DNA of 64,000 bases, from assembly GCA_964628245.1 (NCBI GenBank), contig CAZVMU010000007.1:66090-130089 (forward strand). The letters run 5' to 3'. The notes beneath the pieces were generated by a model, which saw only the letters and a program-made list of their open reading frames with translations, did not search any database and was not told where the DNA came from. Source of the DNA: an uncultured Phycisphaeraceae bacterium (lineage in GTDB: Bacteria > Planctomycetota > Phycisphaerae > Phycisphaerales > UBA1924). The stretch's first letter is position 1. Every line of letters begins with the position of its first letter. The position numbers were made by a program, and so were the translations under genes. Positions 27,954-51,856 of this stretch are shown piece after piece.

Positions 27954-29146
27954 GCCCCCGGCACGGTGACCTGCACCAGTCTCCGCCGGCGGATCTCCTC
28001 GCTCCCCAACTGCCCGCACGCCCCCATCATCCGCCGCCCCTTCGTCCGCCGCCGCTTCGCAAAGACGCCGTGCTCGTACAACTCCTCCAGGAACCGTGTC
28101 ACCGACTCCTCGCTCGGCGCAGGCCACGGCGACTCACGCCGAGGGTTGTACGGGATCACATTCACGATCGCCCGCCTCTTCCCCTTGCGATCCACCAGCG
28201 GCCTCACGAACTCCGCCACCTCCGCAGCCGCCGCCATCGAGTCGTTCACGCCGGGGATCAGCACATACTCCACACAGATCTTGTTCCCCGCATACTCGGG
28301 CCACTCGCGCAGCGCCCGCTGCACCGCCGCCAGATTCCACTTGCGATTCACCGGCATCAACTCCGACCGCACCGCGTCATTCGGCGCATTGAGCGACAAC
28401 GCCAATCCCAACCGATGCCACCCCGGCTCACGCACCTTCTCCGCCAGCCGCCGGATCCCATCCACCCGCCCCACCGTCGAGACCGTGATCTGACTCATCG
28501 CGATCCCCGCCCCGAACTGATCCGTCAGCACCTCGATCGCCCCCAGCACCGCCTCTATGTTGTCCAGGGGCTCCCCCATCCCCATGAACACGATGTTCTG
28601 TGGCCGGATCCCCACCTCGTGCGCCGCCGCGTGCCATTGCCCCACGATCTCCGCGACCGTCAGTGACCGGATCAGCCCCATCTGGGCCGTCTCGCAGAAC
28701 CCGCACCCCATCGCGCACCCGACCTGGCTCGACACGCACAGCGTGTACGTCCGCGCGCCGCTGCTCCCGATCATCGGGATCAGCACCGATTCAATATCCA
28801 GATGCGGAAACCGCTCGCGCCCCGCCCTCCCCTCCTCCCCCGCCTCCCCCAGAGGCAATCGCTGCACAAACTTCACCACCTCACCCTCGTCCGACTCCTC
28901 GCGCAGCATCCGCACGATTCCCGCCCGATCAACCCGGACCTCTCCTCCATCCGTCGTCGCGACGCTCATCACCCCATCGCGCACCATCGCCCGATACGCC
29001 GCGATCGCTCCGCGCGCGCCCCCGACCCGCCCCCCCCGCCCCGCCCCAGCGCTCCCGTCCACGTGCACAATCCGCCCGCGCCACCGCTCCGCGAACGCCG
29101 CGCTCGTCATCGCCAACGGAGATTCCACGCCCGATTCGACCACCAT
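27950..29146 (-). CDS. rlmN: 23S rRNA m2A2503 / tRNA m2A37 methyltransferase (radical SAM)
   Basis: Radical-SAM CxxxCxxC (GCAMGCGFCETAQ) and downstream RlmN-type motifs (NIVFMGMGEPLDN, SLNAPNDAVRSEL). Start uncertain. Confidence 0.85.
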   Translation of the reverse strand: MVVESGVESPLAMTSAAFAERWRGRIVHVDGSAGAGRGGRVGGARGAIAAYRAMVRDGVMSVATTDGGEVRVDRAGIVRMLREESDEGEVVKFVQRLPLGEAGEEGRAGRERFPHLDIESVLIPMIGSSGARTYTLCVSSQVGCAMGCGFCETAQMGLIRSLTVAEIVGQWHAAAHEVGIRPQNIVFMGMGEPLDNIEAVLGAIEVLTDQFGAGIAMSQITVSTVGRVDGIRRLAEKVREPGWHRLGLALSLNAPNDAVRSELMPVNRKWNLAAVQRALREWPEYAGNKICVEYVLIPGVNDSMAAAAEVAEFVRPLVDRKGKRRAIVNVIPYNPRRESPWPAPSEESVTRFLEELYEHGVFAKRRRTKGRRMMGACGQLGSEEIRRRRLVQVTVPGA

Positions 29147-29355
29147 CCCCAAGCGTACGCCGGGCGCGATTCGCCCCGACCAAAGGCCGGGACGAGGTGA
29201 GGGGGATCGGGATTGGAAATGAGACCACGAGCAGTGACAGTCGTACCGACATCGTTCGGGTGCCATCAGCCGGCGCCTCCGGGCCGACTGATGCATATGT
29301 GTCAGCGATGGGTACGGACGGCCTGGGCGCTGGAGGGAGTCCGCCACCAGTCGAC

Positions 29356-29669
29356 TCAAAGCCGCCGACTGGTGACACCCAAGGCAGTTTCAACCCACGC
29401 CACCCACCAGAATGTGTCGTCGGCCGCCTGCGCCGGCGTGACGTTGGGGTTGCCCAGAAAGGGCTTGACATCCACGCCCATGCGGTGCTCACCCAACCAG
29501 AAGGGGTTAAAGATGGCGCTGTCGGTGGAGTTGGCGCTGCACCCGCCGGGGTGGGGCCAGCCGGTGAGGTTCACGCGAGGATAGAACGGTTCAGGCTGGG
29601 CGACCGCCATGGGCGAGAGTCCGGTGATGACTCCGATCACCTGGCAGGCGCGGACCAACAGACTTGTTC
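29356..29669 (-). CDS. hypothetical small secreted protein
   Basis: AAGGAG 10 nt upstream of the ATG. Signal-peptide-like N-terminus (MSMGTSLLVRACQVIGVITGLSPMAVAQP). Trp/Pro-rich mature part of about 80 aa. Confidence 0.4.
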
Positions 29670-29737
29670 CCATACTCATCGAGCACCGACTCCTTTCTAA
29701 GAACATCATTCAAAGCGATGTCGAGAAACGTCCGGCG

Positions 29738-30901
29738 CTATTCACGTGCCCGGCGACGTGTCATCGAGAGTGCCAAGAGCGTCAGAATGGGGATCGCGAT
29801 ACCCGGCGCGGGGATCGTCGCGACGTATGCCTCGAATGTGCCATCGCCAAAGACGTAGGCGCCATAGAAATGCAGCCCATCACCAGAGACCCCGCCTACG
29901 CCGATCTGACCGCCCGCGGGAAACTCGATGCCGTGCATCGAGAAGTAGTCGCGCGTGGAGATCGCCCCCGTCTCTTCGGTCCAGATCCAGTGGCCGGCAG
30001 CGCCGCCGCCCCCGATGGCGACGCTCGCGTCGTTGGAGAGGTCGGCGGGGAGCAGGCCCGGGACGCCATAGGGGCCCTGGGGATTCCAGTACGTCGAGAC
30101 ACCGTCGTGGATCATGACAGTGTCGATGTAACGAACAAAGAGCGTGCGACCATCCCCGCTCATGATCGGAGCCTCCGCGTCAAGACCCAGAGGCGATCCG
30201 TCGGGAAAGGTCATCGGCGTAAACTCGGATTGCGTCGAATCCCACAGGAACGCGGCGTGCGGGCCAAAGACACTCGGCCCCGCCTGACCGGCCACGAGCC
30301 GGCCGTCCGACGAGATCGACCGCACGGTGTTGTACGTGCTTCCCTGGAGGACCGAGGGGATCTGGGCCGTGCCCGTGCCGGATGTCCAGCGATACGAGAG
30401 GCTCTGTGTGTGGCCATCGACGAACGGGCTCGCGTTGAGCATCACAACGCTTCCATCGTGGCTGATGTGCGTGACCCGTCCCTGTTGCTCTTCATCCAGG
30501 TACTGCAGATTGGGCAGCGAGATTGAAGACCCGTCTTGGTAATAGAGCAGGTCGTGGTCGAGGTTGGTGCTCGAGACCGCGACCACATTTCCATAGCCGG
30601 AGATTCGTGCGGCATAAACGCCCGAAGCGAACTCGACCCGTTCTGCGCCCAGGTTCGACGGGTCCTCTTTGAATGCGGACCCCCACGTGAACCACGTTGA
30701 TGGCGAGTAGTTGTAGCTCCGCGCGACGATGATCCCGTTGTCGGAGATGTCTGCTATCCCGGCATGCTCGTACCCCGGACTCGGCTGGATGAACCGCAGG
30801 CTCGGCGTCTGGGCGTGAACATGGCCCGCGACCCCGGCCGCCAAACCGACCACGCCCCACACGACCGCTTTCGTCGCCGCTCTCTGTGCCCAAGTTCGCA
30901 T
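29738..30901 (-). CDS. secreted HAF-family repeat protein with PEP-CTERM-like C-terminal sorting signal
   Basis: Signal peptide. Repeated S-x-DG-x-x-V-x-G units (ISDNGIIVAR, ISHDGSVVM, ISSDGRLVAG, MSGDGRTLFV, VSGDGLHFYG). C-terminus IPAPGIAIPILTLLALSMTRRRARE (PxP + TM + Arg cluster). Confidence 0.7.
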   Translation of the reverse strand: MRTWAQRAATKAVVWGVVGLAAGVAGHVHAQTPSLRFIQPSPGYEHAGIADISDNGIIVARSYNYSPSTWFTWGSAFKEDPSNLGAERVEFASGVYAARISGYGNVVAVSSTNLDHDLLYYQDGSSISLPNLQYLDEEQQGRVTHISHDGSVVMLNASPFVDGHTQSLSYRWTSGTGTAQIPSVLQGSTYNTVRSISSDGRLVAGQAGPSVFGPHAAFLWDSTQSEFTPMTFPDGSPLGLDAEAPIMSGDGRTLFVRYIDTVMIHDGVSTYWNPQGPYGVPGLLPADLSNDASVAIGGGGAAGHWIWTEETGAISTRDYFSMHGIEFPAGGQIGVGGVSGDGLHFYGAYVFGDGTFEAYVATIPAPGIAIPILTLLALSMTRRRARE

Positions 30902-31139
30902 CACGCCGCCTCCAGACCCCGACGGGCTGGCCCCGTCACATTGGGGCCTCCAGGGAGGAATGTGCACCACGCTTCCGGTTTGTCAACCAAAGTGGCCGGA
31001 TTCTGGAAGATTCAGGGAAACGACCGGGCCCGCGACCCGCCCCCCGAGTGCCCGATCACGAATGCCGACTCACGAATCACGATTCATGAACCACCAACAT
31101 CGATCACCCAGTCGTGCCGCGCCCCCGCAAGAGAGCCCT

Positions 31140-32861
31140 CTACTTCTTCCCACCCCCACCCCCCGCCCCCCCCGTCCCTTCATCCTTCACGAGCGCGTCC
31201 AGCATCGTCCCCACCAACGCCGCCCCTTCCCCATTTCCACCCCCACCACTCCCATTCACCATCACCCGAGGCGTGATCTGGATGTTCCGCTCCCCCACCA
31301 CCTTCAGGATCTCAATGAGCGCCGCGTTGCTCGCCCCGATCGATTCGGCAATCTTCGCGTACGCCGCCGCCTGCGACTTCGCGCGGATCTCGATCGACTC
31401 CGCCTCCGTCGCCGCCTCGATCAGTTTCTTCGACTTCTCCTGCTCGGCGATCTGCACCGCATACGACGCCGTCGCCAACTTCCGCTCCTCCTCGGCCTCC
31501 TGCTCCGCACGCGTCAACGACTTCTTCTGCTCCGCCGCCTTCTCCTGCTCCTTGTATGTCTCCAGTTGCTGCTTGGCGATCTCGCGGTCGCGCTGGGTCT
31601 TCAGCAGCGTCCCCAGCGTCTCCTCGTCGCCCACCGCGCCGATGCGCACCGCCGTGATGCTCACGCCAAAACGCGACATCTCGTCGGCCAGCATGTCCAG
31701 GCTCTGCTTCTCCTGGTGCGATCGCTGCTGCACATAATCCAACGCCGCGACCTTCTCCGCGTTGTTGCGGAAGATCGCCCGCACCGCCGAGTTCAGCGCG
31801 TTGTGGAACCGGTCCTTCTCGTCGTCCCCAAGTTTCGCCACCACGATCGGCGCATTGTGCGGCTCAATGAAATACTCGATCCGCACATCAACCGGGAACT
31901 GGAACCCGTCCCGCGTGATCACCGTGATCGCCCGCTCATCCGCCGCCGAGTCACGCGAGACCCGCGTGGAATCATTCTTGCTCGGCACCGGGTTCGACGA
32001 CCCGCTTGCCGTGTAGTGCGCGATCATCTGCGTCGTCCAGATCTCCGTCACCGTGAACGCGTCCGTGTTGAGCGGATACTTCCCAGGCGGCAGCGTCTCG
32101 GCGCGAATCCCCATCTCTCCCTCGCCCGCCAGTCTCAACCGCCGGACGTTCGAAGGAGGCATCGCGCTCGCGTTGGGCGAATCCGCCCCCGACTCGAGCG
32201 AGCCGGCCGGACCCTCGACCACCTTCGTCGGAGGATCGCCGAAGTTCGCCGTCAGCACCGCGACCTCGCCGGGGATCACCACGGTCTGCGAGACCATCTT
32301 CACCTTGAACAGCCGCGTGTTGAGACGGTACGTCCCCGGCTTGAGCACCGTCGTCTGCTTGCCCTTGTACCCCTTGCCCGTCGTGAGAAACGTCTGCGCG
32401 TCAAGCATCGCGGAGACCTCACCCGCCGCCCACTCGGGCGCAAAGAGCATTCCCTGCGTCATCGCCACGCCATCGGTCGCCTCGATGATCCCCACCTGGT
32501 CCGCCGGCACGACGACCAGATCCTCATTCGACACGCTGTACAGCACAGGCCACAGACCCCAGTGCCATCCCGGCGCCAGCACCTCGGCCTGCACGCCCAT
32601 CTCGCCATCCACAGCGATGATCCGTCCATCCTTGAGCGACGAGCCCAACGCGTTCTTCGTCACAATCCCGACCTCGTTCGCCCCGACATACGCGACAGAA
32701 CTCATCACCACCCCGCCGACAAAGACGAGAACCGCCCCGATGAGCGCCACGATCCGCAGTCTCTTCATCGGGATCCTCGGAATCGTGGACAGAATGCCCA
32801 CCGCCAGAACCATCGCGATGACAAGCACGATCAACTGCATGATGACCCCCTTCTCGAGCAT
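31140..32861 (-). CDS. flotillin-like SPFH/Band-7 domain protein
   Basis: N-terminal TM. SPFH domain. Long Ala/Glu-rich coiled-coil flotillin C-terminus (EQEAEEERKLATASYAVQIAEQEKSKKLIEAATEAESIEIRAKSQAAAYAKIAE). Confidence 0.85.
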   Translation of the reverse strand: MLEKGVIMQLIVLVIAMVLAVGILSTIPRIPMKRLRIVALIGAVLVFVGGVVMSSVAYVGANEVGIVTKNALGSSLKDGRIIAVDGEMGVQAEVLAPGWHWGLWPVLYSVSNEDLVVVPADQVGIIEATDGVAMTQGMLFAPEWAAGEVSAMLDAQTFLTTGKGYKGKQTTVLKPGTYRLNTRLFKVKMVSQTVVIPGEVAVLTANFGDPPTKVVEGPAGSLESGADSPNASAMPPSNVRRLRLAGEGEMGIRAETLPPGKYPLNTDAFTVTEIWTTQMIAHYTASGSSNPVPSKNDSTRVSRDSAADERAITVITRDGFQFPVDVRIEYFIEPHNAPIVVAKLGDDEKDRFHNALNSAVRAIFRNNAEKVAALDYVQQRSHQEKQSLDMLADEMSRFGVSITAVRIGAVGDEETLGTLLKTQRDREIAKQQLETYKEQEKAAEQKKSLTRAEQEAEEERKLATASYAVQIAEQEKSKKLIEAATEAESIEIRAKSQAAAYAKIAESIGASNAALIEILKVVGERNIQITPRVMVNGSGGGGNGEGAALVGTMLDALVKDEGTGGAGGGGGKK

Positions 32862-33017
32862 CCGGCCAGGTGCACGCCGCTCCGCACGATACTGGTGATT
32901 GCGAAAATCTCACACACGATTTCGCCGACAGTGTACCCGATCCCGCGATCACACGTGTCGCGCGCGCAACAACGCCACGCCAGCGTTTCACGTGGAACAA
33001 TGAATCGATCGCGCAAC

Positions 33018-33920
33018 TCAGGGTCTTGGATTGTCCGCCCAGCCGAACGGCCTCACCGTCGCCGGCCAACTCGGGCCGATCGTGAACCAGCCCGTCTTCC
33101 CACGAACGTAAATGTCGTTCGCCACGCAGTCGCCCAGGTCCGCCTGCGAATCGCCGCGCGGCCCGCGCGGCAAGCCGACGAGCTGCACATCGCCGTTGAT
33201 GTACAGGATGTGCCCCTTCCCCCCGTGACGATTCGTCAACTGGTCCCAGTTGCTGAACATGCCGTCAGGACTGCGGCTGTTCCACCACTCGATGTCCTCC
33301 TCGAGATACGCCGGCAAACCGGCGAGCTTCTCGAGATTAATCGCCGGCGGCTGCCCGGCGCGCGCGGCCTGGGCCGTGCGCGTGCGGCATCGGTTGTCCC
33401 ACGCGACCTCGTAGAACCCATCCACGCGTGCGCCCGAGGCGCCGGTGATCATGGTGTAATCAAAGTTGATAGCGCGCGGCGTGAGAAACTCGTTGAACAA
33501 CACCAACTGCAGTCGCCGCGCCGGGTCCTGCCATTCCGGCGCCGATGGGTTCGCGACAAACTGCGTCGGCGTGCGGCGCTTGTTGGTCGGGCAGGCGAAG
33601 ATGTTGTCCACGTTGGTGAGATAGATGAACCCAGGGCCGACGACCGCCGGGTTCGCCGTCGAGAGCGCCTGGAGCGGATTGCGAGGCTGGGCGTACCAGA
33701 ATCGGTACGGGTTGTTGACGCCCGTCTCCCAGACGCGCCCCTTGAAGTCGTTGGCGTAGGCCTGGAGCCCGACGCCGATCTGTTTGTTGTTCGACATGCA
33801 CGCCACGGTCCGCCCGGCTTCACGCGCCTTACTGAGCGCAGGAAGCAGGAGCGAGATCAGCAGCGCGATGATGGCGATGACGACGAGCAACTCGATGAGG
33901 GTGAACGCCTTCCGAATCAT
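33018..33920 (-). CDS. DUF1559 family protein with prepilin-type N-terminal cleavage/methylation domain
   Basis: N-terminus [37 protein letters not shown] is a type IV pilin-like signal. This architecture is typical of Planctomycetes DUF1559 proteins. Confidence 0.85.
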
Positions 33921-34006
33921 GACTGTAATTTATCACACTCCGCGGAAAACACAAGTTCGGGAACCGTTTGTGCCTAGGATCGGCTCGACTTTTTGGGAGA
34001 TTTGGC

Positions 34007-35440
34007 ATGTCGTGGCTCCGCGTTTCTGAGGCGTTCAAGGCTCTTGTGGGCACCCCGGTCACTGTGAAGGGGTGGGTGCGGACGAATCGGGAGTCGAAGG
34101 CCGACGGCGGCTTGTGCTTCCTGGGGGTCAGCGATGGGAGCACATTCGACCCGATCCAGTGCGTGGTTCGCGGCTCGATCGCGAACTTCGGCGAGGTCCA
34201 GAAACTCACGACGGGCTGCTCGGTGGAGGTCGATGGCGTGCTCGTCGCCAGCCAGGGGAAGGGGCAGGCGGTCGAGATCGCCGTGGATGCGGGGCAGGGC
34301 GGCGCGGTGCGGGTGATCGGGCTGGTGGAGAACCCCGACACGTATCCGGTCTCGAACAAGCGGCACACGTTCGAGTATCTGCGCGAGGTGGCGCACCTTC
34401 GCGTGCGGACGAACACCTTCGGCGCGATCGCGCGCGTTCGGCACACGCTGGCGATGGCGATCCACCGGTTCTTCCACGAGCAGGGATTCCAGTGGGTCCA
34501 CACACCGATCATCACGGCGAGCGATTGCGAGGGCGCCGGGCAGATGTTCCGCGTGAGCACGCTGGACATGATGAACCCCAAGAAGACTCCCGAGGGTGCG
34601 ATTGACTACACCGAGGACTTCTTCGGGAAGGAGTCGCACCTGACGGTCTCGGGGCAGTTGAACGTCGAGACATACTGCATGGCGTTGTCGAAGGTGTACA
34701 CGTTCGGGCCGACGTTCCGGGCGGAGAACAGCAACACGAGCCGGCATCTCGCGGAGTTCTGGATGATCGAGCCGGAGATCGCGTTCGCGGATCTGGCGGC
34801 GGACGCGGCGCTTGCCGAGGCGATGCTCAAGTCGATCTTCAAGACGGTCTTGAGCGAGCGCGCGGACGACATGGCGTTCTTTGGCGAGCGCATCGACAAG
34901 GAGGCTGTGTCGCGGCTCCAGCACATCATCGAGAAGCCGTTCCTTCGGGTGACGTACACCGAGGGGATCCGGATTCTCGAGGAGGCCGTGAAGAAGGGAA
35001 CGAAGTTCGAGTTCCCGATCTCGTGGGGGAAGGACCTGCAGTCTGAGCACGAGCGGTTTTTGACCGAGCAGCACTTCAAGCAGCCGGTGATCCTGACGAA
35101 CTATCCGAAGGGGATCAAGGCGTTCTACATGCGGATGGACGACGGGTGCGACAAGGGTCGCGAGACGGTGAGCGCGATGGACGTGCTCGTGCCGGGGATC
35201 GGCGAGATCATCGGCGGGAGCCAGCGCGAGGAGCGGCTGGACGTGCTCGATCGTCGCATCGACGAGATGGGCTTGCCCAAGGCCGAGTACTGGTGGTATC
35301 GGGATCTTCGGCGATATGGAACGGTGCCCCACGCCGGGTTCGGGCTTGGGTTCGAGCGTCTGATCCAGTTCGTGACGGGGATGCAGAACATCCGCGATGT
35401 GATCCCGTTCCCGCGGGCACCGAAGCAGGCGGAGTTCTGA
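34007..35440 (+). CDS. asnS: asparagine--tRNA ligase
   Basis: Class IIb synthetase. [21 protein letters not shown] matches the AsnRS-specific motif 2 region. Motif 3 ([15 protein letters not shown]) is present. Start at MSWLRV. Confidence 0.9.
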
Positions 35441-35609
35441 GTCGCGTTGGCAGGGCTGCAGGTCCGATTTGGCGGGGAGAGTAGTAGAAGTAGGTCGAAG
35501 GGGGAGAACCTCACCGAGCACGGTGGTACCCGGGTATCTCGAGCCTTTGTGACAGAGAATTTGTTTGGCACTTGCCCATGATCTCGGGTATAGTGCACAG
35601 TGTCATTTT

Positions 35610-35637
35610 TTACACTAGACCTCGCCCCATCGTTTCG
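35610..35637 (+). promoter_or_regulatory. stem-loop in asnS downstream / 35688-gene 5' region (possible terminator or 5'UTR structure)
   Basis: CCTCGCCCC-atcgtttc-GGGGTGAGG inverted repeat followed by TTTGGATT. It sits about 170 nt after the asnS stop and about 50 nt before the next start. Confidence 0.3.
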
Positions 35638-35687
35638 GGGGTGAGGTTTGGATTCGCACGATTCTCACGGGGCTTGGAGGTTCCAAG

Positions 35688-37334
35688 ATGTTTGACCGCA
35701 AGATGTTGAGCACGAGGTGGTTGTCTGGCGCATCTCTGGCTGTACTCCTGGCGGGGTCGGCGTATGGGCAATGGTCCACGGATCCCGCGAACCACCTGCT
35801 GGTGGGCAATGCCGCGGGCGATCAGAACCAGCCCAAGATTGTGCTTCGTGCCGATGGCGGGTTCTCGATCTCGTATCTGAGCACACAGGGAACGGGGTGG
35901 GACACGTTCGTGCAGCGGCTGAACGCGGGGGGCGTAGAGCAATGGGCGCACGACGGCGTGAACTGTGCCGACACGAACTTCAGTTCGACCGAGGACTATG
36001 GCCTTGCGGTCGATGGCGATGGCAACACGCTCATCGCCTTCCGTGACGACCATGGGACGTTCACGCAGATCGGGCTGCAAAAGATCGCGCCGGACGGGTC
36101 GCTCCCCTGGGGGCCGTTCGGAGTGACGGTGTCGGCGGCAACGTCGGCGGGCGAGGTGCACTCGCCGGGCGTGGTCGTGACGAGCGACGGGAACTATGTC
36201 GTGGGCTACTCGCGTGGCACGACGACGACGAACGGCCGAGCGTGGTACCACAAGATCACGCCGACGGGCACGGCGATGTGGGGGTCGGGCGTCTCGATCG
36301 CGCCGGCGTCGAACAGTTATACGGCGGGGACGATGGTCGCGGGTGACGGCGGCGCGGTGATTGCCGTGCTTCAGACGTCCGGGAGTTTCACGGCGAACCG
36401 TCGCGTGCACGTGCAGCAACTCGACAGCGCGACGGGGGCGCAGGTGTGGAACGGCGGCGTGCCGATCGTGGTGCAGACGGCGAACCAGTTGCAGATCGGG
36501 AACTTTGCATCGGCGGTCTCGGATGGCGCGGGTGGCGCGGTGATCGCGTGGTATGAGGTGCCGAATGGCGCGTTCATGTGCCGGGCGCAGCGGGTGGATT
36601 CGAGCGGGACGCTCTTGTTCCCGGCGGGTGGGGCGGCGGTGGCGTCGACGGCCGGGCCGCTGCGGGTGTCGCCCGACGTGATGTTCGACGCGGGATCGGG
36701 TTCGACGTATGTGTTCTATGGCGAATCCGATGCGCTGCAGGCGAACTTTGCCGTCTATGGGCAGAAGTTCGACGCGACGGGGGCGCGGCAATGGGGCGAG
36801 GGCGGCGCGCCGATCACGTCGCTCTCGTCGAGTCAGACATCCTTTGTTCGCACGACGAAGACAAGCGGTGGAGCGATGGTGGCGTGGTTCGAGGCCGTGG
36901 GACCCATGGCGGCGAATGTGCGTGCGGCGATGGTCGATGAGACCGGCGCTGTCGTCGGCTCGGTCGTGACGGTGGACACGAACTTTGCGTCGAAGACGCG
37001 TTTGAGCGCGGCGGCGACGGCGGACGGATCCATGGCGCTCGTGTATGGCGAGGCGTCGGCGGGCGATCTGGACATCCGGTCGCTGCGCATGAACCCGGAC
37101 GGGTCGCTTGGTGTGAGTGTGCCGACGTGCGTCGCGGATGTGGATGACGGCACGGGCACGGGCACGCCCGACGGCGGCGTCACGATCGACGACTTGCTCT
37201 ACTACCTGTCGATTTTCAACCTCGGGCAGGTGAGCGCTGACGTGGACGACGGCACGGGCACAGGGACACCCGACGGCGGGGTGACGATCGATGACTTGCT
37301 GTACTACCTTGCCCGCTTCAACGCGGGATGCTAA
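35688..37334 (+). CDS. secreted repeat/beta-propeller-like protein with C-terminal tandem dockerin-like module
   Basis: GGAGG RBS. Signal peptide (LSGASLAVLLAGSAYGQ). C-terminus CVADVDDGTGTGTPDGGVTIDDLLYYLSIFNLGQVSADVDDGTGTGTPDGGVTIDDLLYYLARFNAGC-stop. Confidence 0.75.
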   Translation: MFDRKMLSTRWLSGASLAVLLAGSAYGQWSTDPANHLLVGNAAGDQNQPKIVLRADGGFSISYLSTQGTGWDTFVQRLNAGGVEQWAHDGVNCADTNFSSTEDYGLAVDGDGNTLIAFRDDHGTFTQIGLQKIAPDGSLPWGPFGVTVSAATSAGEVHSPGVVVTSDGNYVVGYSRGTTTTNGRAWYHKITPTGTAMWGSGVSIAPASNSYTAGTMVAGDGGAVIAVLQTSGSFTANRRVHVQQLDSATGAQVWNGGVPIVVQTANQLQIGNFASAVSDGAGGAVIAWYEVPNGAFMCRAQRVDSSGTLLFPAGGAAVASTAGPLRVSPDVMFDAGSGSTYVFYGESDALQANFAVYGQKFDATGARQWGEGGAPITSLSSSQTSFVRTTKTSGGAMVAWFEAVGPMAANVRAAMVDETGAVVGSVVTVDTNFASKTRLSAAATADGSMALVYGEASAGDLDIRSLRMNPDGSLGVSVPTCVADVDDGTGTGTPDGGVTIDDLLYYLSIFNLGQVSADVDDGTGTGTPDGGVTIDDLLYYLARFNAGC

Positions 37335-37590
37335 CACATTGCGAACAGACACATTCTCGGAATCTGGAATGGTTGGCCGGGCGAAGTTGGAGACGAATTG
37401 GGGTCTTTGAGTACGGGCGTTCTGCTTGCGATGCGTTCAGTTTTCGGTACACTGTCTTTGTCTAGGACCCGTTCGGGTCGTGTGATCTCGTGGAGGTTGG
37501 AGACTCGCACTGGAAACGGTGCGGGGTGTAAGTGGGTGTCGTTGGGTGTGCCCGGTCGTCAACGTGCCGGCTTTATGGAGTAGGTTTCCC

Positions 37591-40227
37591 ATGAAACAGA
37601 AATGTCTGATTGGTATCGGGGCGTTCGCGATGAGCGCCGGTCTTGCGTGCACGTGTCTGGCGGCTGAGGGGCCGGACGTGATCGTGGGTGACTTGCCGGA
37701 CATCTCGAACTGGACCGCGGGGAGCCCGGTGAACGGGATCCGCGCGTATTCGGTGGGCACGACATCGTGCAACGTCGGCACCGTCGTCCTGCAGTGGATC
37801 GCGAGCAACAACCGGCACCCGGTCATCGGGCAGAATCTGTACAAACTGAGCAACGGCCGATTCACGCAGATCGGACAGAGCTGGCTGAAGCACGGCTTCA
37901 CGGCGCTCCAGGGAACGGTCTGCAGCACGAGTTGCACGCCGAATCCGGGCGGCGGATCGGGGCTGGGCCTTCTGTGCTCGGATCCGTACGGCTCGTCGCT
38001 CAACGGCGGGCAGTCGCGCCTTGGGCCCAAGTCCGAGGTGAACGCGGCGACGGGTTTCTATCCGTATCCGTTCATCAACCAGGGCACGACGGGCACGATC
38101 GGCAAGCGCCTCCAGGTGAACGACACCGAACTGACGCCCGAGGATGGCTCGCAGTACTTCGTCTCGGGGCAGTATGTCACGTGGGACGACACCCAGGCGG
38201 GGAACAAGACCAACAACGAGTCGTATCGGCGCGCGACCATCGGTGCGGCTCCGAACCGGAACATCACGGTGACGGGCACGACGCAGCGCGGGATCCCGGC
38301 GATCTATGCGTGGCAGGATCACGGGCTGGGGGCGAACATCCCCGACCCCGGTGTCATCATCACGCATCTCCAGGTGCCCGAGGACGGCGATTTCTTTGTC
38401 GGGTCCAAGGCGACCTCGGTGGGGACGAACGTGTGGCGGTATGAGTACGCGATCCAGAATCTGACTTCGGATCGATCGGGCGGATCGTTCAGCATCCCGC
38501 TCCCCGAGGGCGCGGTGGTGACCAACGTCGGGTTCCATGACGTGGACTACCACTCGGGCGAGCCGTACAACAACATCGATTGGACGCACACGATCTCGGC
38601 GGATTCGATCACGTGGAACGTGGTCGGGACGTACGTGCCGAATCCGGCGCCTCCGGCCCCTCAGACGGCGGACACGGCGAACGCGCTGCGATGGGGCACG
38701 ATCTACTCCTTCTGGATGGATGTGAACTTCCCGCCGGAGAACGGGACGGGAACGTTGGGCCTCTTCAAGCCCGGGACGCCCGCGGACGCGAGCGTCGGCA
38801 TTCGCGTGCCGAGCGTGACGGGCCAGACGGGCCCGACGAATAACGATTTTGTGTTCGCGCCGCCGGTGGGCGCGGGAACGACGCAGTTCACGACGACGGG
38901 CGCCTCGACGGACGGGAACAACCTGTCCGACGGGACGACGATCGCGAACGACGTGTGGTTCCGCTACACGGCGGCGTGCGCCGGCGCGACGACGATCGGG
39001 CTGTGCGGAAGCTCGTTCGACACGAAGATGGCGGTCTATCCCCTGAGCGCCGGCGTGCCGGCGGCGGGATCGGAGATCGCGTCGAACAACGACGATCCGC
39101 TCTGCCCCACGGGGAACGGGACGCAGTCGCGCGTGACCTTCAACGCGACGGCGAACGCGACGTATTTCATCCGCGTGGGTGGGAACGGGACCGCGTCGGG
39201 CGATGCCGAGATGAGCATCGTCGGGCCGTCCTGCACACCCCAGCCCCCGGCGAATAATGCGGTGGCGGGCGCCCAGTGGCTCGCGGACGCGGCCGAGGTC
39301 ACGGGGACGACGAGCCTCGCGACGAATGACGGGACGGCGACGTGTGGCAACTCGGCGACCTCGCCCGACGTGTGGTTCCTCTATCGCCCGCAGACCAGCG
39401 GCGTGATCTTCTTCACGACGTGCGGGAGCCAGCTCAACACCGTGCTCAGCGTGTATGACCACGCGAGCGGCACGCAGATCGCGTGCAACGACAACGCCCA
39501 GTCGGGCGATTGTGCCGGGACCAACCAGTCTCTCGCGGCGATCGTCGGGACGGCAGGGACGACGTATCGCGTCCGCCTCGCGGGGGCGAACAACTCTCGC
39601 GGCTCGTACGCCATGAAGGCGACGGGCGGCGGGGGGGTGCTCCCGGCGGCCAACGACACGTGCCTCAACCGGCAGGTCCTGCCCTTCGGCACGACCAACT
39701 TCAACAACTTCGGCACCGCGACCGACGGCCCGACGCACGTGGGCTGCCCGGTTCCCAATGACGTGTGGTACAACCTTCACACGGACTCCGCCGGCGACGT
39801 GACGATCTCGACGAACGCGACGTTCGACTCGGCGCTCTCGGTCTACTCGGGCGCTGGCTGCTCGGATCTGGCCTCGCGTCTGGTGATGTGCAGCGACACG
39901 GGTGGCTCGGGCACCAACGCCGCGGTGACCTTCGCCGCCAGCGCCAACAGCAACTACACCATCCGCGTGGGTGGGACGACGACGGGCACGGGTACCATCT
40001 CGGTGACGGCGGGCGTGACCTGCGTCGCTGACATGGACGACGGGACCGGGACGGGCACGCCCGACGGCGGCGTCACCGTGGACGACCTGCTCTACTACGT
40101 CGGGATCTTCGGGAACGGCAACATCGGCGCTGACGTCGATGACGGCAGCGGCACGGGCTCGGCCGACGGCGCTGTGACGATCGACGACCTGCTCTACTAC
40201 ATCGTCCGCTTCCAGGCGGGGTGCTAA
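37591..40227 (+). CDS. large secreted protein with three internal approximately 135-aa repeats and C-terminal tandem dockerin-like module
   Basis: Signal peptide (MKQKCLIGIGAFAMSAGLACTCLAAEG). Three repeats carrying DVW[FY]..T.CGS.FDT..[AS]VY. C-terminus CVADMDDGTGTGTPDGGVTVDDLLYYVGIF...ADVDDGSGTGSADGAVTIDDLLYYIVRFQAGC-stop. Confidence 0.75.
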   Translation: MKQKCLIGIGAFAMSAGLACTCLAAEGPDVIVGDLPDISNWTAGSPVNGIRAYSVGTTSCNVGTVVLQWIASNNRHPVIGQNLYKLSNGRFTQIGQSWLKHGFTALQGTVCSTSCTPNPGGGSGLGLLCSDPYGSSLNGGQSRLGPKSEVNAATGFYPYPFINQGTTGTIGKRLQVNDTELTPEDGSQYFVSGQYVTWDDTQAGNKTNNESYRRATIGAAPNRNITVTGTTQRGIPAIYAWQDHGLGANIPDPGVIITHLQVPEDGDFFVGSKATSVGTNVWRYEYAIQNLTSDRSGGSFSIPLPEGAVVTNVGFHDVDYHSGEPYNNIDWTHTISADSITWNVVGTYVPNPAPPAPQTADTANALRWGTIYSFWMDVNFPPENGTGTLGLFKPGTPADASVGIRVPSVTGQTGPTNNDFVFAPPVGAGTTQFTTTGASTDGNNLSDGTTIANDVWFRYTAACAGATTIGLCGSSFDTKMAVYPLSAGVPAAGSEIASNNDDPLCPTGNGTQSRVTFNATANATYFIRVGGNGTASGDAEMSIVGPSCTPQPPANNAVAGAQWLADAAEVTGTTSLATNDGTATCGNSATSPDVWFLYRPQTSGVIFFTTCGSQLNTVLSVYDHASGTQIACNDNAQSGDCAGTNQSLAAIVGTAGTTYRVRLAGANNSRGSYAMKATGGGGVLPAANDTCLNRQVLPFGTTNFNNFGTATDGPTHVGCPVPNDVWYNLHTDSAGDVTISTNATFDSALSVYSGAGCSDLASRLVMCSDTGGSGTNAAVTFAASANSNYTIRVGGTTTGTGTISVTAGVTCVADMDDGTGTGTPDGGVTVDDLLYYVGIFGNGNIGADVDDGSGTGSADGAVTIDDLLYYIVRFQAGC

Positions 40228-40357
40228 GCCTCCAGAGTCGGTTGCAACTTCCGACATCCACACCCGCCCGCGAGAGCATCGCGGGCGGGTTGTTTTTTGT
40301 CCGTCCTGGACGCGCGGCGCGCATAGTTCTCCCTCGCCGCGATATGCTGAGACCATC

Positions 40358-43300
40358 GTGCAGGCCGAGCGTGTCTTTCTGGGTTGGGACGGGCCGATGC
40401 TCCCGCGGGCGGCGGCGTGGCTGCGCGAGCGATTTTCAGATCCCGGTGTTCTGGGTGGGGTGATTTGCGTCGTACCAGGCGCCCGAGCCGGGCGACGGTT
40501 GGTGGCGCTCCTTGCCGAGGATGAGGGTGATGGCGTGTGTGTGCCGCCTCGGGTGGTGCAGCCGGGCGGGCTTGCGTCGCTGCTTCGATTTCGAGAACCG
40601 GTTCGTCGGGTGGCGAGCGAGGCCGAGCGACTGCTGGCGTGGGCGCGATCGATCGAAGTGGAGAAGGGTGTTTTCGAGGCGCTGCCGGCGATGGAGGCGG
40701 GGCGATCGACGCTGACGGGGCGATTGGGCCTGGGCAGGTCGCTCGAATCGATTCGCGGCACGATCGCGCGATCGGGGATTGTGGACGGATTGTGCTTTGA
40801 ACGCGCGGGTGCGGCGGCGAGTGAGATCCATCCGGGCGACGAGGAACGCTGGGGCGTGCTCGAGCGGCTCGAGGCGAGGACGCGATCGATTCTGTCGAGA
40901 CGATCGTTGGGGTTTGAGGAGGACGTTCTGCCTCGCCTGCGTGAGGCGGGTCGGCGACCCTCGGCGATCGTGCTGATCGGCGTCCCCGAACTCGACGGCC
41001 TCTCGCGGGCGGTGCTTCGTGTGATGCTCGACGCGGGTGTGCCCGTGGTCTCGCTTGTGGGGGCGCCGCAGAGCGAGTCGCTTCTCTTCGATGAGCACGG
41101 ATGCGTTGATGTGAATCGAGCCGACGGGTGGCCGGAGCGGGAGATCGATCTCGCGCGCGAGAGAGAAGATCCGGTGCGAGTCGTGAAGGACCAGGGCGAG
41201 CAGGCCGAGGGTGTGCTCGAGGTGATCGAGGCGCTCGCGGTGGCGGCGGCGTCTCGCGGGGGCACGCTGGCCGCGGATGAGGTGGTTGTGTGTGCGCCGT
41301 CGCCCGAGGGCGCTCGGCACCTGGAGATCGTGGGGCTTTCGCGGGGTGTGGAGTTCCATGATGCCGCGGGTGTGCGGCTTTCGCGTACGCTTCCCATGCG
41401 ACTGCTCGAGGATCTCGCGGCATACGCGCAGTCGCCAACGCTTGAGCACCTCTCTTCGCTCGTGCGGCATCCGGATGCGGAGCGGTGGCTCTCAAAGCGG
41501 TTGGGATCGCCGGCGGTCGATATGCGGGGTGGGACGGAGATGTGGCTGGAGGCGCTGGACAAGGCCGTGAGCAGGCGGCCTTCGGTGCGGATCGAGGCGA
41601 GCGAGTTGGCGAGCGGGGCGGCGAGCGCATCACGGCACGAGTCTGAGGTGTTGCGCGCCGTGTACCAGTGTGTGCAAGACCTTGTGGGCGTGGCGATGGG
41701 GTTGGCTGGGGGCGGCGTCGATGGTGAAGGGAATGAAGAGGCGAGGACGGTGCCTGAAGCAGAAGTAAGCACAGGCGGGACGCCTGTGCCACGAGAGCGA
41801 GTCGATCGCGCTGCGCGAGTCTCTGTCGGCTTCTCGGCCGGATCGACCACGGTTGGAGAGTGGGCGCGGCGGGCGTGGCGTGTGCTTGGCGTGGTGTATG
41901 CGTCGGGATTTGGGAGAGACACGCTTGCGGACACCCAACGCGCGACCGGCGAGGAGTTTGCCGAGGCGACTCGGGCGGCGCTGGATGCGATTCGCGGGGC
42001 GTGTGAGGAACTCGCGAGTATCGAGATGGAATCCGACGCGTCGAAAGCGACTCGCGTTGGTGTGGTTGAGGGGTTTGGGGTTGTGTTGTCACTCGTGCGT
42101 GATCGCGTGGCGGCCGAGGAGGCGACGCGTGAGAGCGTGGACATGATCGGGTGGCTGGAGTTGGCGCTCGACGACGCGCCGATGGCGATAATTCTGGATC
42201 TGAGTGAGGGGGTCGTGCCGTCGAGAGTCGCGGGGCATCCGCTGCTTCCCGGGCGTGTGCGCGGGAGGCTCGGCCTGGAGACGGACGAGAGCCGGGCGGC
42301 GCGTGACGCGTATCTCCTGCAGTGGGTCGCGCGATCAAGACGACTGGTTCGCGTCTTTGTGCCCCGGCGGTCGGCTCGCGCGGACGCGATGACGCCGAGC
42401 CGGTTGTTCTTTCGCGGTGACGATGCGACGCTTCTTCGGCGAGTCGGCGTGTGGACCAAGGACGAGAGTGAGCATCCACGCCCGGTGGTTGTGGGGAGTG
42501 GATCGCGGGGCGTCGAAGCGCGATTCGAGCCGGTGGAGGTCGGCGTGTTCCGTGTGCCCGTGACGGGGTTCAAAGACTACCTGCTCTCGCCCCGGTATTT
42601 TTATTACAAACACATCCTGGGCCTTCGTGAGCGGGAGGAGGAAGGGTGGGAGATCGGCGCGCTCGGGTTTGGCACGATGATCCATGGGGCGATCGAGGCG
42701 ATCTCGTCCATGCCCGAGGCGGATCGGTCGCATGAGTCCTTCGTGGGCGAGGCGATGCACGCGGGGTTGGAGGAGTGGGTTCGCACGCACATCGGTGGCC
42801 GCGTGCCCCGGCCTGTAGAGTTGCAACTCGAGGCCGCGCGGCGGCGGCTTGTCGCGGTGGCGGCGTGGCAGGCGCGTGAGGCGCAGGCCGGGTGGCGCGT
42901 GATGCACAGCGAGTGGAAGGGCGTCGGCAACGTGCTCACACGGTTTGAGGTCGAGCATCGTGACCGCGAACGCGGCGTGACGCGGCGGTCGTTGCTCGTG
43001 ACAGGACGGATCGATCGCGTGGATGTCCACGCGGAGACCGGTGACATTCGAGTCATCGACTTCAAGACCGGCGACAGCGCGTCGACGGCGGACCGTGCCC
43101 ACTACTCGCGCTCGAGGGGGTGGATCGATCTGCAACTGCCGCTGTATGTGCGCGGCGTGGAGTTGCTACGTCCCAAGGGCGCGATCCATGCGGGGTATGT
43201 GTGCATTCCGGCAAGCGTTGGGGGCGACGAAGGCGGCGAGGTGGCGTTTGATGTCGCCACCTGGGAGAAGTCGTCGCTCGGCGAGGCTCACGCCCGGGCC

Positions 43301-43441
43301 CAGGAGATCGCGCAGGCGATGGTGAATGGGGAGTTTGAGGAGGAGGGCGATGTGCCGACGCACGCGGGGGCGTCTTTGGTGCGGCTGCTTGGGATGTTCG
43401 ATCGTGATGACACGGATGATGGAGATGAGGTGGGTGCATGA
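40358..43441 (+). CDS. AddB-like helicase-nuclease subunit (inactive-helicase scaffold with C-terminal PD-(D/E)XK nuclease)
   Basis: 1027 aa. No clear Walker A. C-terminal RecB-family nuclease motif (GRIDRVDVHAETGDIRVIDFKTGD). Stop overlaps the next start as ATGA. Confidence 0.65.
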   Translation: MQAERVFLGWDGPMLPRAAAWLRERFSDPGVLGGVICVVPGARAGRRLVALLAEDEGDGVCVPPRVVQPGGLASLLRFREPVRRVASEAERLLAWARSIEVEKGVFEALPAMEAGRSTLTGRLGLGRSLESIRGTIARSGIVDGLCFERAGAAASEIHPGDEERWGVLERLEARTRSILSRRSLGFEEDVLPRLREAGRRPSAIVLIGVPELDGLSRAVLRVMLDAGVPVVSLVGAPQSESLLFDEHGCVDVNRADGWPEREIDLAREREDPVRVVKDQGEQAEGVLEVIEALAVAAASRGGTLAADEVVVCAPSPEGARHLEIVGLSRGVEFHDAAGVRLSRTLPMRLLEDLAAYAQSPTLEHLSSLVRHPDAERWLSKRLGSPAVDMRGGTEMWLEALDKAVSRRPSVRIEASELASGAASASRHESEVLRAVYQCVQDLVGVAMGLAGGGVDGEGNEEARTVPEAEVSTGGTPVPRERVDRAARVSVGFSAGSTTVGEWARRAWRVLGVVYASGFGRDTLADTQRATGEEFAEATRAALDAIRGACEELASIEMESDASKATRVGVVEGFGVVLSLVRDRVAAEEATRESVDMIGWLELALDDAPMAIILDLSEGVVPSRVAGHPLLPGRVRGRLGLETDESRAARDAYLLQWVARSRRLVRVFVPRRSARADAMTPSRLFFRGDDATLLRRVGVWTKDESEHPRPVVVGSGSRGVEARFEPVEVGVFRVPVTGFKDYLLSPRYFYYKHILGLREREEEGWEIGALGFGTMIHGAIEAISSMPEADRSHESFVGEAMHAGLEEWVRTHIGGRVPRPVELQLEAARRRLVAVAAWQAREAQAGWRVMHSEWKGVGNVLTRFEVEHRDRERGVTRRSLLVTGRIDRVDVHAETGDIRVIDFKTGDSASTADRAHYSRSRGWIDLQLPLYVRGVELLRPKGAIHAGYVCIPASVGGDEGGEVAFDVATWEKSSLGEAHARAQEIAQAMVNGEFEEEGDVPTHAGASLVRLLGMFDRDDTDDGDEVGA

Positions 43442-46400
43442 GCGCGGCACCCGGGAAGAAGTACGGGATCGCTCGCGGTGAGGGGGGTGCCGCTCGCGGT
43501 CGCGCGCCGATGGAGCCGACGGTCGCGTTGCGGACGATTCTGGCTTCGGCGGGTTCGGGGAAGACGCACGAGTTGACGAGCGCGTATCTGCGACTGCTCG
43601 TGCATGGCGTGCCGGTGACGCGGATTCTGTCGGCGACGTTTGCCCGGCGGGCGGCGGGGGAGATTCTTGATCGGCTTTTGAAGCGGCTGGGCGAGGGTGC
43701 GGCGAGTGACACGGCGGCGCAGGCGCTGGGCACGGCGCTTGGCGTGAGAGACCTGACGGCAACGGAGTGCCTCTCGACGCTGCGCGTTTTCACGAGGTCG
43801 ATCCACTCGGCGTTCGTTGGCACCTTGGATTCGTTCTTTCATCGCTTCGCGTCCACCTGTGCGCTCGACCTGGACCTGCCGCTGACGTGGTCGATCGCGG
43901 ACGAGGAGACGGATCGGGAGTTGCGGCGGGTGGCGCTCCTTGATTCGCTCGAGGCCGCGGACGTGATCGAGCAGGCGCAGGTGATCCGGACGCTGCATGG
44001 GCAGTATGCCAAGCGGGCGATCGTGTCGTCGCTGGAGCGGTCGGTCGCCGCGACGTATGACGTGGCGCGTGATGTGGCGGATGGGGCGTGGGAGACGATT
44101 CCGCCGCCGGGCGAGGCGGACTGGGGAATCGCGGAGAAGAGCGCTGCCGCGATCCGCGAGGAGATGCTGGAGCCGAAGCGTGATGGCACGCCAAACAAGA
44201 ACTTTGTCAACGCGCTCATTCGGCTTCGTGGAAATATCGAGAATCGAGACGCGGAGGCGATCATCTCCGCCGGGATCGGCAGGCCGATTGTGGAGAGCAT
44301 CTTGAGCGGTGCCGAGACCATCACGTACTACGGCAAACCACTCCGCGAAGATCTCCTTTCACAACTCTGGCCAATCGTCGAGCTGGCGATGAACGATCTG
44401 CTCACGCGGCACGTTCGTGGCGGGATGGCGCTGCGTGACATCCTCAAGGACTTTGGCGTTCACTACACGCGGCTGAAGCACGCGCGGGGGCTGGTCAAGT
44501 TTGATGATGTGCCTCGGGCGCTCTCGCGGGCGCTTGCGCGGATGAAGATCGACGATGCGTACTACCGGCTTGATGGACGGATCGATCATGTCCTGCTCGA
44601 CGAGTTCCAGGACACGTCGATGGACCAGTACCGACTCTTCGGGCCGATACTCGATGAAATCCGGGGCGGGGGCGAGGGGGCGGGCGGGTCCGCTATGGGG
44701 CGGAGCGTGTTGCTGGTGGGCGATCCGAAGCAGAGTCTGTATCAGTGGCGCGGGGCCGAGCCGCGGCTGCTCCCGATGCTGGCCGAGCGAGGAAAGGCGG
44801 AGCCGCGGGACACGAGTTTCCGGAGTGATCCGGCGGTGCTTGGCGCCGTGAACGAGGTCTTCTTGAATCTGCACGATGGGTTGAGTGACGAGTTCGATGG
44901 CGTGGCTTTGGCGTGGGGGTCGATGTATCGGGAGCATCGCAAGGACCCGAAGGCGAAGCGGCAGGAGGCGGTTGGGTTTGCCGCGTTGCATGAGGCCATC
45001 GACTCTTCGATTGCCGATGATGATCCGGACACGAAGGCGAAGAAGGATGATCGACTCGTGGCGTGTGCGACGAGCGCGGCGTTGCTGGTCGAGCGGCTCT
45101 TGAGCGAGCGGCCGGATTGGACGATCGGCGTGCTCGTGCGCGACCATAAGGGGTTGTTCGCCGTGATGCGGGCGCTGCGGAAACGGGGCATTCCGGCGAG
45201 CCAGGAGGGGGGGAACCCGCTGACTGATGCGCCGATCGTGAGGGCGGCGATGAGCGCGCTGACCTTTGCGGATTCGCCGAGTGATGGCGTCGCGTGTTAC
45301 CACGCGATGCACTCGCCGGCCCGGTCGCTGCTGGGAATCGAGGACGAGTTCCCCGGCCGGACGCGGGTGCGGCGGGCGGTGTCGCGGCTTCGGTTCCGGC
45401 TGGCGACCGAGGGGTATGACCGCGTGCTCGCCGCGTGGGCGCGATCGATCGAGGGTGAACTCGACGAGTGGAGCCGGCGACGACTGTCGCAGTTGGTGGA
45501 AGTGGCCGAGCGATTCGGGCCTGAGGCGGGGGAGAGGCCGAGGCGATTTGTCGATCGCGTGGAGCGGCATGGGGTGGAGTCGCCTCAACCCGAGCGGGTG
45601 CGGGTGATGACGGTGCATGCGAGCAAGGGGCTGGAGTTCGACGCGGTGGTGCTCCCGACACTGATGGAGAGTCTGGTGGGAAGGCCGCCAGAGGTGCTGG
45701 TGCACGCGCCGGACCCGATGAAGCCGGCGGCGTGGGCGGGGCGGTATCCGAGCGCGGAGGTGAAGGCGTGCCATCCGATGCTGGATGAGGCGTGGCGGGC
45801 GTGGCGAGCGCGGTGCGTGCATGAGCAGTTGTGCGTGCTGTATGTGGCGATGACGCGAGCGAGGCAGCGGCTGGACATGATCGTGCCGGCCGGCAAGGAA
45901 GGCACGGCCACGACGAAGCCAGGAACGAGTGGCGTGCCGACGTTCGAGCGGGTGCTGCGGGGCACGCTCGTGCGAGATGGATCGTCAGGACGCGCGACCA
46001 ATGTGACTCATGACGACTTGCGTCTTCGGACGGTGTGGTCGATCGGCACGCCGCACGCTTCGAGTCCGAGGCCGATCGAGCGCGAAGTGGAGGTGAAGAT
46101 GCCGGGCCGGATCTCGCTCGCGCCGGCTTCGCGGCGCGTGGTGCGTGTGAGCGCGACGCGCGAGGCGGCGGTTGGCGCGGGCGTGAGTCGCTACCGAACC
46201 GAAGTGGATGATGGCGTGGCACGGGCCCGGGGGCTTGTGGCCCACGCGTGGTTCGAACTTATCGAATGGCTGGAGCGCGACGGACCGACCGACGCGATGC
46301 TCCGCGCCCGGTGGGAGGATCTCGCCTCGGACGTGCCGGCACTCGCGAGTCTGGACTTTGCCCGGGAGGTCGATCGATTCCATGAGGCGATCCGTGCGGT

Positions 46401-46758: not shown

Positions 46759-46815
46759 GAGGCGGACTGCGGCGGTGTGCTTGCCATTGGCCCGGAGAAT
46801 CCCAACCATGTCGGC

Positions 46816-48366: not shown

Positions 48367-48369
48367 GCC

Positions 48370-48621
48370 TTAGGCAAAGGACGGCGGGATCGGTGTGGCC
48401 CGGCCATACTGCCCATAGGGCGAACTTGGCGCGGGGCGAGCCTCGGGTGATGCCGCGGGCTGGGCCGGCGGTGCCGGGGGCTGCTCGGGCTGGCGCGGGG
48501 CCGAGCGCGGCGCGTCGGCACCGGGCTTGTGCGACCGGCGGGCGCGCAACTGGTCGATGTTCTGATCCAGTTTGTTCAGGATCGCCTTGACTTGGTTGAA
48601 TGACTTCTCGGACGGTCCCAT
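48370..48621 (-). CDS. hypothetical small protein
   Basis: 83 aa. Helical-looking N-terminal 30 aa (MGPSEKSFNQVKAILNKLDQNIDQLRARR), then a Pro/Ala-rich tail. Weak support. Confidence 0.25.
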   Translation of the reverse strand: MGPSEKSFNQVKAILNKLDQNIDQLRARRSHKPGADAPRSAPRQPEQPPAPPAQPAASPEARPAPSSPYGQYGRATPIPPSFA

Positions 48622-48804: not shown

Positions 48805-49932
<1,128 letters not shown>

Positions 49933-49937
49933 GAGGC

Positions 49938-51848: not shown

Positions 51849-51856
51849 GCACGTCC

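Follow-up and report, generated by a model that had tools for sequence, protein, structure and literature searches.

A stretch of 64,000 nucleotides from an uncultured Phycisphaeraceae bacterium (contig CAZVMU010000007.1 of assembly GCA_964628245.1, positions 66,090 to 130,089; called the window throughout) carries three exported-type open reading frames (ORFs), encoding proteins A, B and C, that terminate in a common 68-residue module of two repeats with Gly-Cys as its last residues before the stop codon. This module belongs to a family catalogued as GC-type dockerins. The proteins, their putative Sec signal peptides (from reading of the sequence) and the three modules are placed as follows.

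13057..14544 (+), protein A, 495 aa: signal peptide, glucose/sorbosone dehydrogenase (GSDH, a PQQ-type beta-propeller) and GC-type dockerin
13057..13128 (+), putative Sec signal peptide of A, MTIRRCASIGAVLGVVVFSLHALA, followed by VD; basic n-region, hydrophobic core and A-x-A-like site
14338..14541 (+), stop to 14544, module A, 68 aa plus stop, CIADTDDGSGTGTPDGGVTIDDLLYYLDIFAQGSIAADVDDGSGTGTPDSGVTIDDLLYYLVRFGEGC; match to the family model NF041540 and repeat-pattern scan
35688..37334 (+), protein B, 548 aa: signal peptide, beta-propeller without a Pfam family and GC-type dockerin
35688..35768 (+), putative Sec signal peptide of B, MFDRKMLSTRWLSGASLAVLLAGSAYG, followed by QW
37128..37331 (+), stop to 37334, module B (the flagged feature), 68 aa plus stop, CVADVDDGTGTGTPDGGVTIDDLLYYLSIFNLGQVSADVDDGTGTGTPDGGVTIDDLLYYLARFNAGC
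37591..40227 (+), protein C, 878 aa: signal peptide, N-terminal region of no known family, galactose-binding-like/PPC-like beta-sandwich domains and GC-type dockerin
37591..37665 (+), putative Sec signal peptide of C, MKQKCLIGIGAFAMSAGLACTCLAA, followed by EG
40021..40224 (+), stop to 40227, module C, 68 aa plus stop, CVADMDDGTGTGTPDGGVTVDDLLYYVGIFGNGNIGADVDDGSGTGSADGAVTIDDLLYYIVRFQAGC; NF041540 match and repeat-pattern scan

All three ORFs were confirmed, and most of what the initial annotation of this DNA had described was borne out: three proteins ending in a near-identical two-repeat module of about 68 residues, a repeat consensus satisfied by 6/6 repeats of modules A, B and C, Gly-Cys directly before the stop in each, and passengers that are mutually unrelated (best blastp E = 0.4). 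Its coordinates are correct for modules A and B, but the start of module C had been placed at 40020, one base off the true 40021. It had also recognized the terminal Cys while overlooking the invariant Cys at the start of each module (C-[IV]-A-D...), which gives the bracket Cys...Gly-Cys. A hidden Markov model (HMM) of the three modules, applied to six frames of the 64-kb window, detected exactly 3 copies and otherwise noise, and A, B and C are the only long ORFs of the window with a Gly-Cys ending.

The modules share 75–79% amino-acid identity and 75–78% nucleotide identity in pairwise comparison, and residues that are identical between them use different codons in 31–41% of cases. Within a module, the two repeats are 77–81% identical at the DNA level. 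The different codons at identical residues and the low nucleotide identity indicate that the conservation reflects selection on the protein, and recent duplication or gene conversion as the source of the similarity is ruled out by the synonymous divergence.

The passenger of protein A matches Pfam GSDH (E = 2.2e-33). The sequence P0222 is 100% identical to protein A, and a member of the protein A cluster bears the name 'PQQ-dependent sugar dehydrogenase [Phycisphaerales bacterium]'. Protein C contains a match to PF23759 GBD_T9SS_assoc (E = 2.1e-10), and its start at 37591 is that of the NCBI-annotated 878-aa product. The AlphaFold model of protein B has an isolated low-confidence helix at residues 10-22. 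The N-terminal signal peptides read from the sequences of A, B and C suggest that the proteins reach an oxidising compartment.

Family membership and dockerin homology

The module is already known. It is a re-discovery of the NCBIfam family NF041540, "dockerin_GC" (GC-type dockerin domain-anchored protein), and near-identical proteins are annotated with the family name. Proteins A, B and C all match the curated 67-position model over positions 1-67 of 67 and score 68–83 bits against a cutoff of 29 bits (protein A, 71.7 bits, residues 428-495; protein B, 77.7 bits, with 82.9 bits for module B by itself; protein C, 68.3 bits, residues 811-878). Such matches are far from random: E lies between 5.6e-19 and 6.7e-22 for full-length A, B and C and is 1.6e-23 for the isolated module B. 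The window modules are identical to the family in every tested respect, namely a two-repeat module of 67/68 residues at the extreme C-terminus, the Gly-Cys end and a Phycisphaerales host, with no sequence-level difference. The taxonomic range also fits, the cluster mates and closest loci coming from metagenome-assembled genomes (MAGs) of Phycisphaerales or Phycisphaeraceae. An exact-sequence look-up placed proteins B and C in 90%-identity clusters with GenBank MGD9789406.1 and MGD9789407.1; the cluster mates at 90% identity or above are named 'GC-type dockerin domain-anchored protein [Phycisphaerales bacterium]', and older records of these cluster entries read "hypothetical protein IPK69_10650/10645". 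The GC-type dockerin family is known from annotation, not from the experimental literature: in the literature searched, no paper was found for the family name 'GC-type dockerin', the accession NF041540 or the term 'dockerin domain-anchored', and nothing relevant was found for dockerins and disulfides in Planctomycetota.

The initial annotation had proposed a search for further genomic copies, and these are abundant. An exhaustive profile search over 1.84 billion cluster representatives located the module in 2,334 of them at E <= 1e-3 and in 1,394 at E <= 1e-10. It ends at the last residue of the protein in 150/150 of the matches listed and in 274/274 non-redundant complete modules. A search of species-representative genomes gave 235 confirmed stretches. 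Of these, the best 80 are almost all from two Phycisphaeraceae MAGs, and the retrieved loci hold at least 80 distinct GC-ending ORFs in one of these MAGs and at least 28 in the other. Adjacent genes in these loci are often both tagged, like B and C. The passengers cover 43 Pfam families in 89 proteins and include Ig, Kelch and other propellers, lamin-tail, lectin, FG-GAP, M36 peptidase and GSDH domains, and signal-peptide-like N-termini were detected by a crude test in 79/101 family proteins. The GC-type dockerin is among the most expanded C-terminal tags in Phycisphaerales.

The repeats had been likened to the F-hand of clostridial type I dockerins, with an HMM match to dockerin or EF-hand models as the suggested check. 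No such match was obtained: Pfam Dockerin_1 (PF00404, gathering threshold 22.9 bits) gave nothing at E <= 1 for A, B, C or the isolated module, and neither did EF-hand_1, _5, _6 or _7 for the window modules, and direct membership of these Pfam families was rejected. The homology to dockerins was instead established through intermediates and is well founded, on four independent grounds. A profile of 42 family members, compared with all PDB sequences, returned three matches, all of them dockerins (4wi0_B, E = 1.4e-3; 4u3s_B, 2.7e-3; 6kge_D, 0.66). Furthermore, the C-terminal tails of passenger A orthologues form a continuum. The tail of P0253 scores above both cutoffs (NF041540, 53.3 bits; Dockerin_1, 28.2 bits), that of P0238 exceeds the Dockerin_1 cutoff at 25.1 bits and nearly reaches that of NF041540, and that of P0230 exceeds the Dockerin_1 cutoff at 24.1 bits. 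EF-hand matches among the short-loop relatives are sub-threshold only.

Comparison of these tails locates the difference in the Ca2+-binding loop, which spans 19 residues from first to last Asp in the GC-type module, versus the canonical 12. When long- and short-loop tails are aligned, the long loop reads as the canonical form, D-x-[DN]-x-[DS]-G-x-[VI]-x-x-x-D, into which seven residues, G-[ST]-G-T-G-T-P, have been inserted after loop position 4 and before position 5; the ligand positions on either side are conserved. Natural intermediates are found, with a short loop 1 and a long loop 2 in P0289 and a partial insertion in P0224. It is because of this insertion that the Pfam model misses the window modules. 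The module otherwise comprises two tandem F-hand (loop-helix) repeats, as in the dockerin fold, is predicted to be helical, and has invariant Asp residues at the expected Ca2+ ligand positions.

Thus, the window module appears to be a diverged type I dockerin, an assignment that holds, but only indirectly, through the intermediates; the earlier comparison with the clostridial F-hand was right in homology and wrong in the loop, which has 19 residues rather than 12. Relative to the clostridial and ruminococcal type I dockerin (PF00404), the GC-type module is distinguished by the 7-residue Gly/Thr-rich insertion in each loop and falls below the Pfam model. In contrast to cellulosomal dockerins, its passengers are not carbohydrate-active enzymes and its host is a diderm planctomycete.

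The two invariant cysteines

In an alignment of 42 sequences, the columns without variation are the two Cys, a single Gly and, in each repeat, the Asp at loop positions 1, 12 and 19. Both Cys are present in 272/274 non-redundant complete modules, 230 of which (84%) have exactly two Cys; of the two exceptions, one has three repeats, with its Cys one repeat further upstream. Cys1 precedes the first loop Asp by three residues, and Cys68 directly follows the last helix. A similar arrangement is seen among 120 GSDH homologues with diverse dockerin-like tails, 102 of which have a Cys within the last three residues (the last residue in 41/120 and the penultimate in 56/120, mostly as -CP), and a second Cys is found 1-3 residues before the first loop Asp in 81/102 of these tails.

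In an experimental study of one dockerin, Slutzki et al. 2013 (PMC3821032) described contacts between the residues preceding loop 1 and the C-terminal residues, which form an intramolecular clasp. The contact is present in all intact dockerin crystal structures that they examined, and both stability and cohesin binding depend on the clasp (PMC3821032). The clasps described there are of the aromatic-stacking, electrostatic and hydrophobic types, and a disulfide type is not mentioned. The invariant Cys pair of the GC-type module occupies both clasp positions, in place of the aromatic or electrostatic clasp of type I dockerins. Invariant Cys at both of these positions, in proteins with signal peptides, suggest that the terminal Cys pairs with Cys1 in an intramolecular disulfide, and such a disulfide clasp, rather than a covalent tethering handle, would be its likeliest role. 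The initial annotation had suggested disulfide or covalent tethering, or sorting, as the role of the terminal Cys; its invariance stands, but tethering is disfavoured by the invariant partner Cys at the clasp position.

The single-repeat forms are awkward for a disulfide clasp, since they keep both Cys. P0357, an orthologue of protein B with 90% identity, lacks exactly one 34-aa repeat, and P0070-P0072 and P0081 are similar. A single loop-helix should keep its two ends apart, so these forms may be head-to-tail dimers. Collapse during metagenome assembly is a possible origin of the single-repeat forms that we do not favour, given that the repeats in the window are only 77–81% DNA-identical. Repeat number varies in the other direction as well, with three repeats in P0083, and a Cys stands at each end of the whole module in the one-, two- and three-repeat forms. 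Additional internal dockerin-like copies without a terminal GC occur in P0084 and P0085.

A candidate docking tag and its alternatives

We compared the tails carried by homologous passengers. The closest Phycisphaerales orthologues of passenger B have the GC-type module and more distant ones have Cys-bracketed canonical dockerins, while 21/120 homologues of passenger B, from other phyla, have type IX secretion system (T9SS) type A sorting domains (PF18962) or FlgD-Ig C-terminal domains in the position of the module. One of these 21 is an NCBI-named T9SS sorting-domain protein from Ignavibacteriales. The presence of these domains in the same architectural position supports a role of the module as a surface docking or sorting tag. 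The T9SS C-terminal domain (CTD) is linked to cell-surface attachment and is cleaved and replaced by a lipid or lipopolysaccharide anchor by a sortase-like peptidase. The GC-type module resembles the T9SS type A domain in its strictly C-terminal position, in its dozens of diverse cargo proteins per genome and in its placement on passenger B homologues, whereas the folds are unrelated, the T9SS type A domain (Bacteroidota, FCB group) being a beta-sandwich and the GC-type module being built of Ca2+-loop helices.

Other tails occur on homologues of protein A. Many GSDH orthologues, such as P0240, P0252 and their relatives, have two-repeat, Cys-rich dockerin-like tails of a different kind, for example '...CATCNGDTTGDN..DIQRF..C...CRCANMNAD...FIDKLLG..DPDPACP' and 'SADFDNNGD.G.DADIEAFFACLAGNCC..CGSADFNADGD.GTDADIEAFFRVL.G..C', with no match to NF041540 or Pfam Dockerin_1; judged by their sequences, these are sister modules without a curated model. 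Four GSDH homologues end in a transmembrane (TM)-plus-Arg tail reminiscent of IPTL-CTERM, an assignment rejected because the scores are below cutoff (14.7 vs 20.5 and 14.5 vs 20.8 bits), leaving a resemblance only. The window module lacks the hydrophobic stretch and basic tail of the PEP-CTERM, IPTL-CTERM and LPXTG-type signatures and has no NCBIfam or Pfam sorting-domain match, and the PF18962 T9SS domain has no match in A, B or C.

Since the module takes the position of the surface-sorting and anchoring tags of other lineages, docking or anchoring of exported proteins would be its best-supported function. We propose that the GC-type module is probably a diverged type I dockerin of two F-hands, which would fold around two Ca2+ ions after Sec export and be closed by a Cys1-Cys68 disulfide, a covalent version of the clasp that would hold the N- and C-termini together. 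In this form it would provide a common tag at the cell surface, fixing diverse exported passengers (propellers, Ig, lectin, peptidases and dehydrogenases) to a putative receptor. The idea of a docking system had been put forward for the three window proteins, and the C-terminal position and the tail swapping support the surface tag, but a search for a partner gave no match to Pfam Cohesin among the approximately 43 predicted window proteins.

For other Phycisphaerae (Nemodlikiaceae), Andrei et al. 2019 (PMC6461901) formulated the 'planctosome' hypothesis of non-cellulosomal cohesin/dockerin assemblies, and cohesin-bearing proteins or scaffoldins have been reported (PMC6461901; PMC11557425). 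The docking tag proposed here comes from the same bacterial class and shares the idea of dockerin-tagged, non-cellulolytic proteins docked on a surface scaffold. However, the planctosome (PMC6461901) is itself a hypothesis, it concerns cohesin/dockerin domains in a few proteins of another family, and the proposal includes neither the GC-type module nor the Cys pair nor the expansion to dozens per genome.

The strongest alternative, possible if rather unlikely, is that the module serves mainly as a secretion or sorting signal for a dedicated Phycisphaerae machinery, for outer-membrane translocation and/or processing, in the manner of the T9SS CTD or of PEP-CTERM/exosortase, with the near-terminal Cys taking part in recognition or attachment; such a role is compatible with docking. 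The strictly C-terminal position in 274/274 modules, the dozens of copies per genome and the very diverse cargo would all be expected of a sorting signal, and the T9SS type A domains on homologous passengers of other phyla, the IPTL-CTERM-resembling (below cutoff) tails of a few GSDH homologues and the word 'anchored' in the NCBI family name point the same way. The fold and homology, however, are those of a protein-binding dockerin, without a TM helix, basic tail or recognisable cleavage motif. The penultimate Cys of the sister modules (-CP, 56/120) indicates that a free C-terminal Cys is not generally required, and no candidate machinery lies beside the genes, their window neighbours being housekeeping.

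It is improbable that the module has no specific partner and acts as a Ca2+-dependent folding or stability element, or as a binder of Ca2+ or polysaccharide, that aids extracellular folding or loose association with the envelope, even though the Asp ligands are invariant and the approximately 43 predicted window proteins include no cohesin. Dockerin-like modules of the non-cellulosomal kind are reportedly frequent even where a genome encodes hardly any recognisable cohesins or none. Cohesin-containing scaffoldins have, however, been reported in Phycisphaerae (PMC6461901; PMC11557425). Moreover, the helix-surface residues (D-D-L-L-Y-Y-L and R-F-x-x-G) are strongly conserved across thousands of otherwise unrelated proteins, which exceeds the needs of the Ca2+ sites and is typical of an interaction surface, and this disfavours an element without a partner. 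Very improbable is an intermolecular covalent link through the terminal Cys, whether a disulfide bond with a Cys of a receptor or of a second GC-type module, or a thioester or lipid attachment, and acting as an irreversible tether: the Cys is invariant, and the single-repeat variants keep both Cys where an intramolecular bond looks geometrically unlikely and could mean head-to-tail disulfide-linked dimers, but the partner Cys is just as invariant and falls precisely on the clasp position of dockerins, the Cys count is even (exactly two in 84% of modules), residues after the Cys are tolerated in sister modules, and we know of no bacterial system that modifies a C-terminal Cys without a preceding TM segment or sorting motif.

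Beyond the disulfide-clasped docking tag that we favour, a broader and unlikely extension is that the GC-type dockerin could serve as the address label in a surface-display system peculiar to Phycisphaerae and not yet described. Here, a receptor or scaffold of its own, which may not be a classical cohesin, would recognise the disulfide-locked and loop-extended dockerin, and 50-100 different proteins per cell would be displayed in this way, as a planctomycetal functional counterpart of T9SS/exosortase tagging, and the -ACP/-SSC sister tails would be parallel tags.

Genomic surroundings and significance

The genes for B and C are separated by a 256-bp spacer in which a consensus scan detected no terminator-like hairpin. 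The same kind of scan, as sole evidence, gave two features on the flanks of the pair.

35565..35594 (+), promoter-like site 5' of B, TTGGCA-18-TATAGT, 10/12
40262..40290 (+), strong intrinsic-terminator-like hairpin just 3' of C: 12-bp stem, 10 G-C pairs, T-run

The terminator-like hairpin after C, with none between B and C, suggests possible co-transcription, and B and C may form a two-gene operon of GC-dockerin proteins. The other genes around them in the window are housekeeping, and no tRNA genes and no Rfam families at gathering threshold were found in 1..64000. The gene for protein A sits between those for a CDP-alcohol phosphatidyltransferase (PgsA-like, 12252..12950, +) and PgpA (~14690..15184, +), and the location of a tagged gene within this phospholipid-synthesis housekeeping pair is probably a coincidence.

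Further ORFs of the window, all on the minus strand, drew attention. A 410-aa ORF (29741..30970, -) with a signal-peptide-like N-terminus and no Pfam or NCBIfam match ends in ...IPAPGIAIPILTLLALSMTRRRARE, a hydrophobic helix followed by an Arg-rich tail. This tail resembles a PEP-CTERM/IPTL-CTERM-type signal and may represent a second, uncurated C-terminal tagging system in the genome. A secreted-looking protein of 524 aa (56408..57979, -), without a Pfam match, has a C-terminal, sub-threshold similarity to fibro-slime TIGR02148 (34.2 bits vs a cutoff of 45, E = 2.6e-8). A DUF1559 protein at 33021..33920 (-) has an N-terminal methylation motif of the prepilin type; Planctomycetota have a great expansion of this pseudopilin-like family, which fits the host taxonomy. 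Finally, a 991-aa ORF (25155..28127, -) has an alpha/beta-hydrolase domain only (residues ~150-260) and overlaps the end of the upstream radical-SAM gene (27953..29359, -) by ~175 nt, so that probably either its start has been called too far upstream or the larger part of the protein lacks annotation.

As a discovery the module is minor, since a curated NCBIfam model already exists. Our analysis adds the second invariant Cys with the proposed disulfide version of the clasp, the defined 7-residue loop insertion and the intermediates that link the family to Pfam Dockerin_1, the family census, and the evidence that T9SS sorting domains replace the module on passenger homologues. Should a receptor be found, it would define how a poorly studied diderm group decorates its surface, and the module could offer protein engineers a redox-lockable dockerin.

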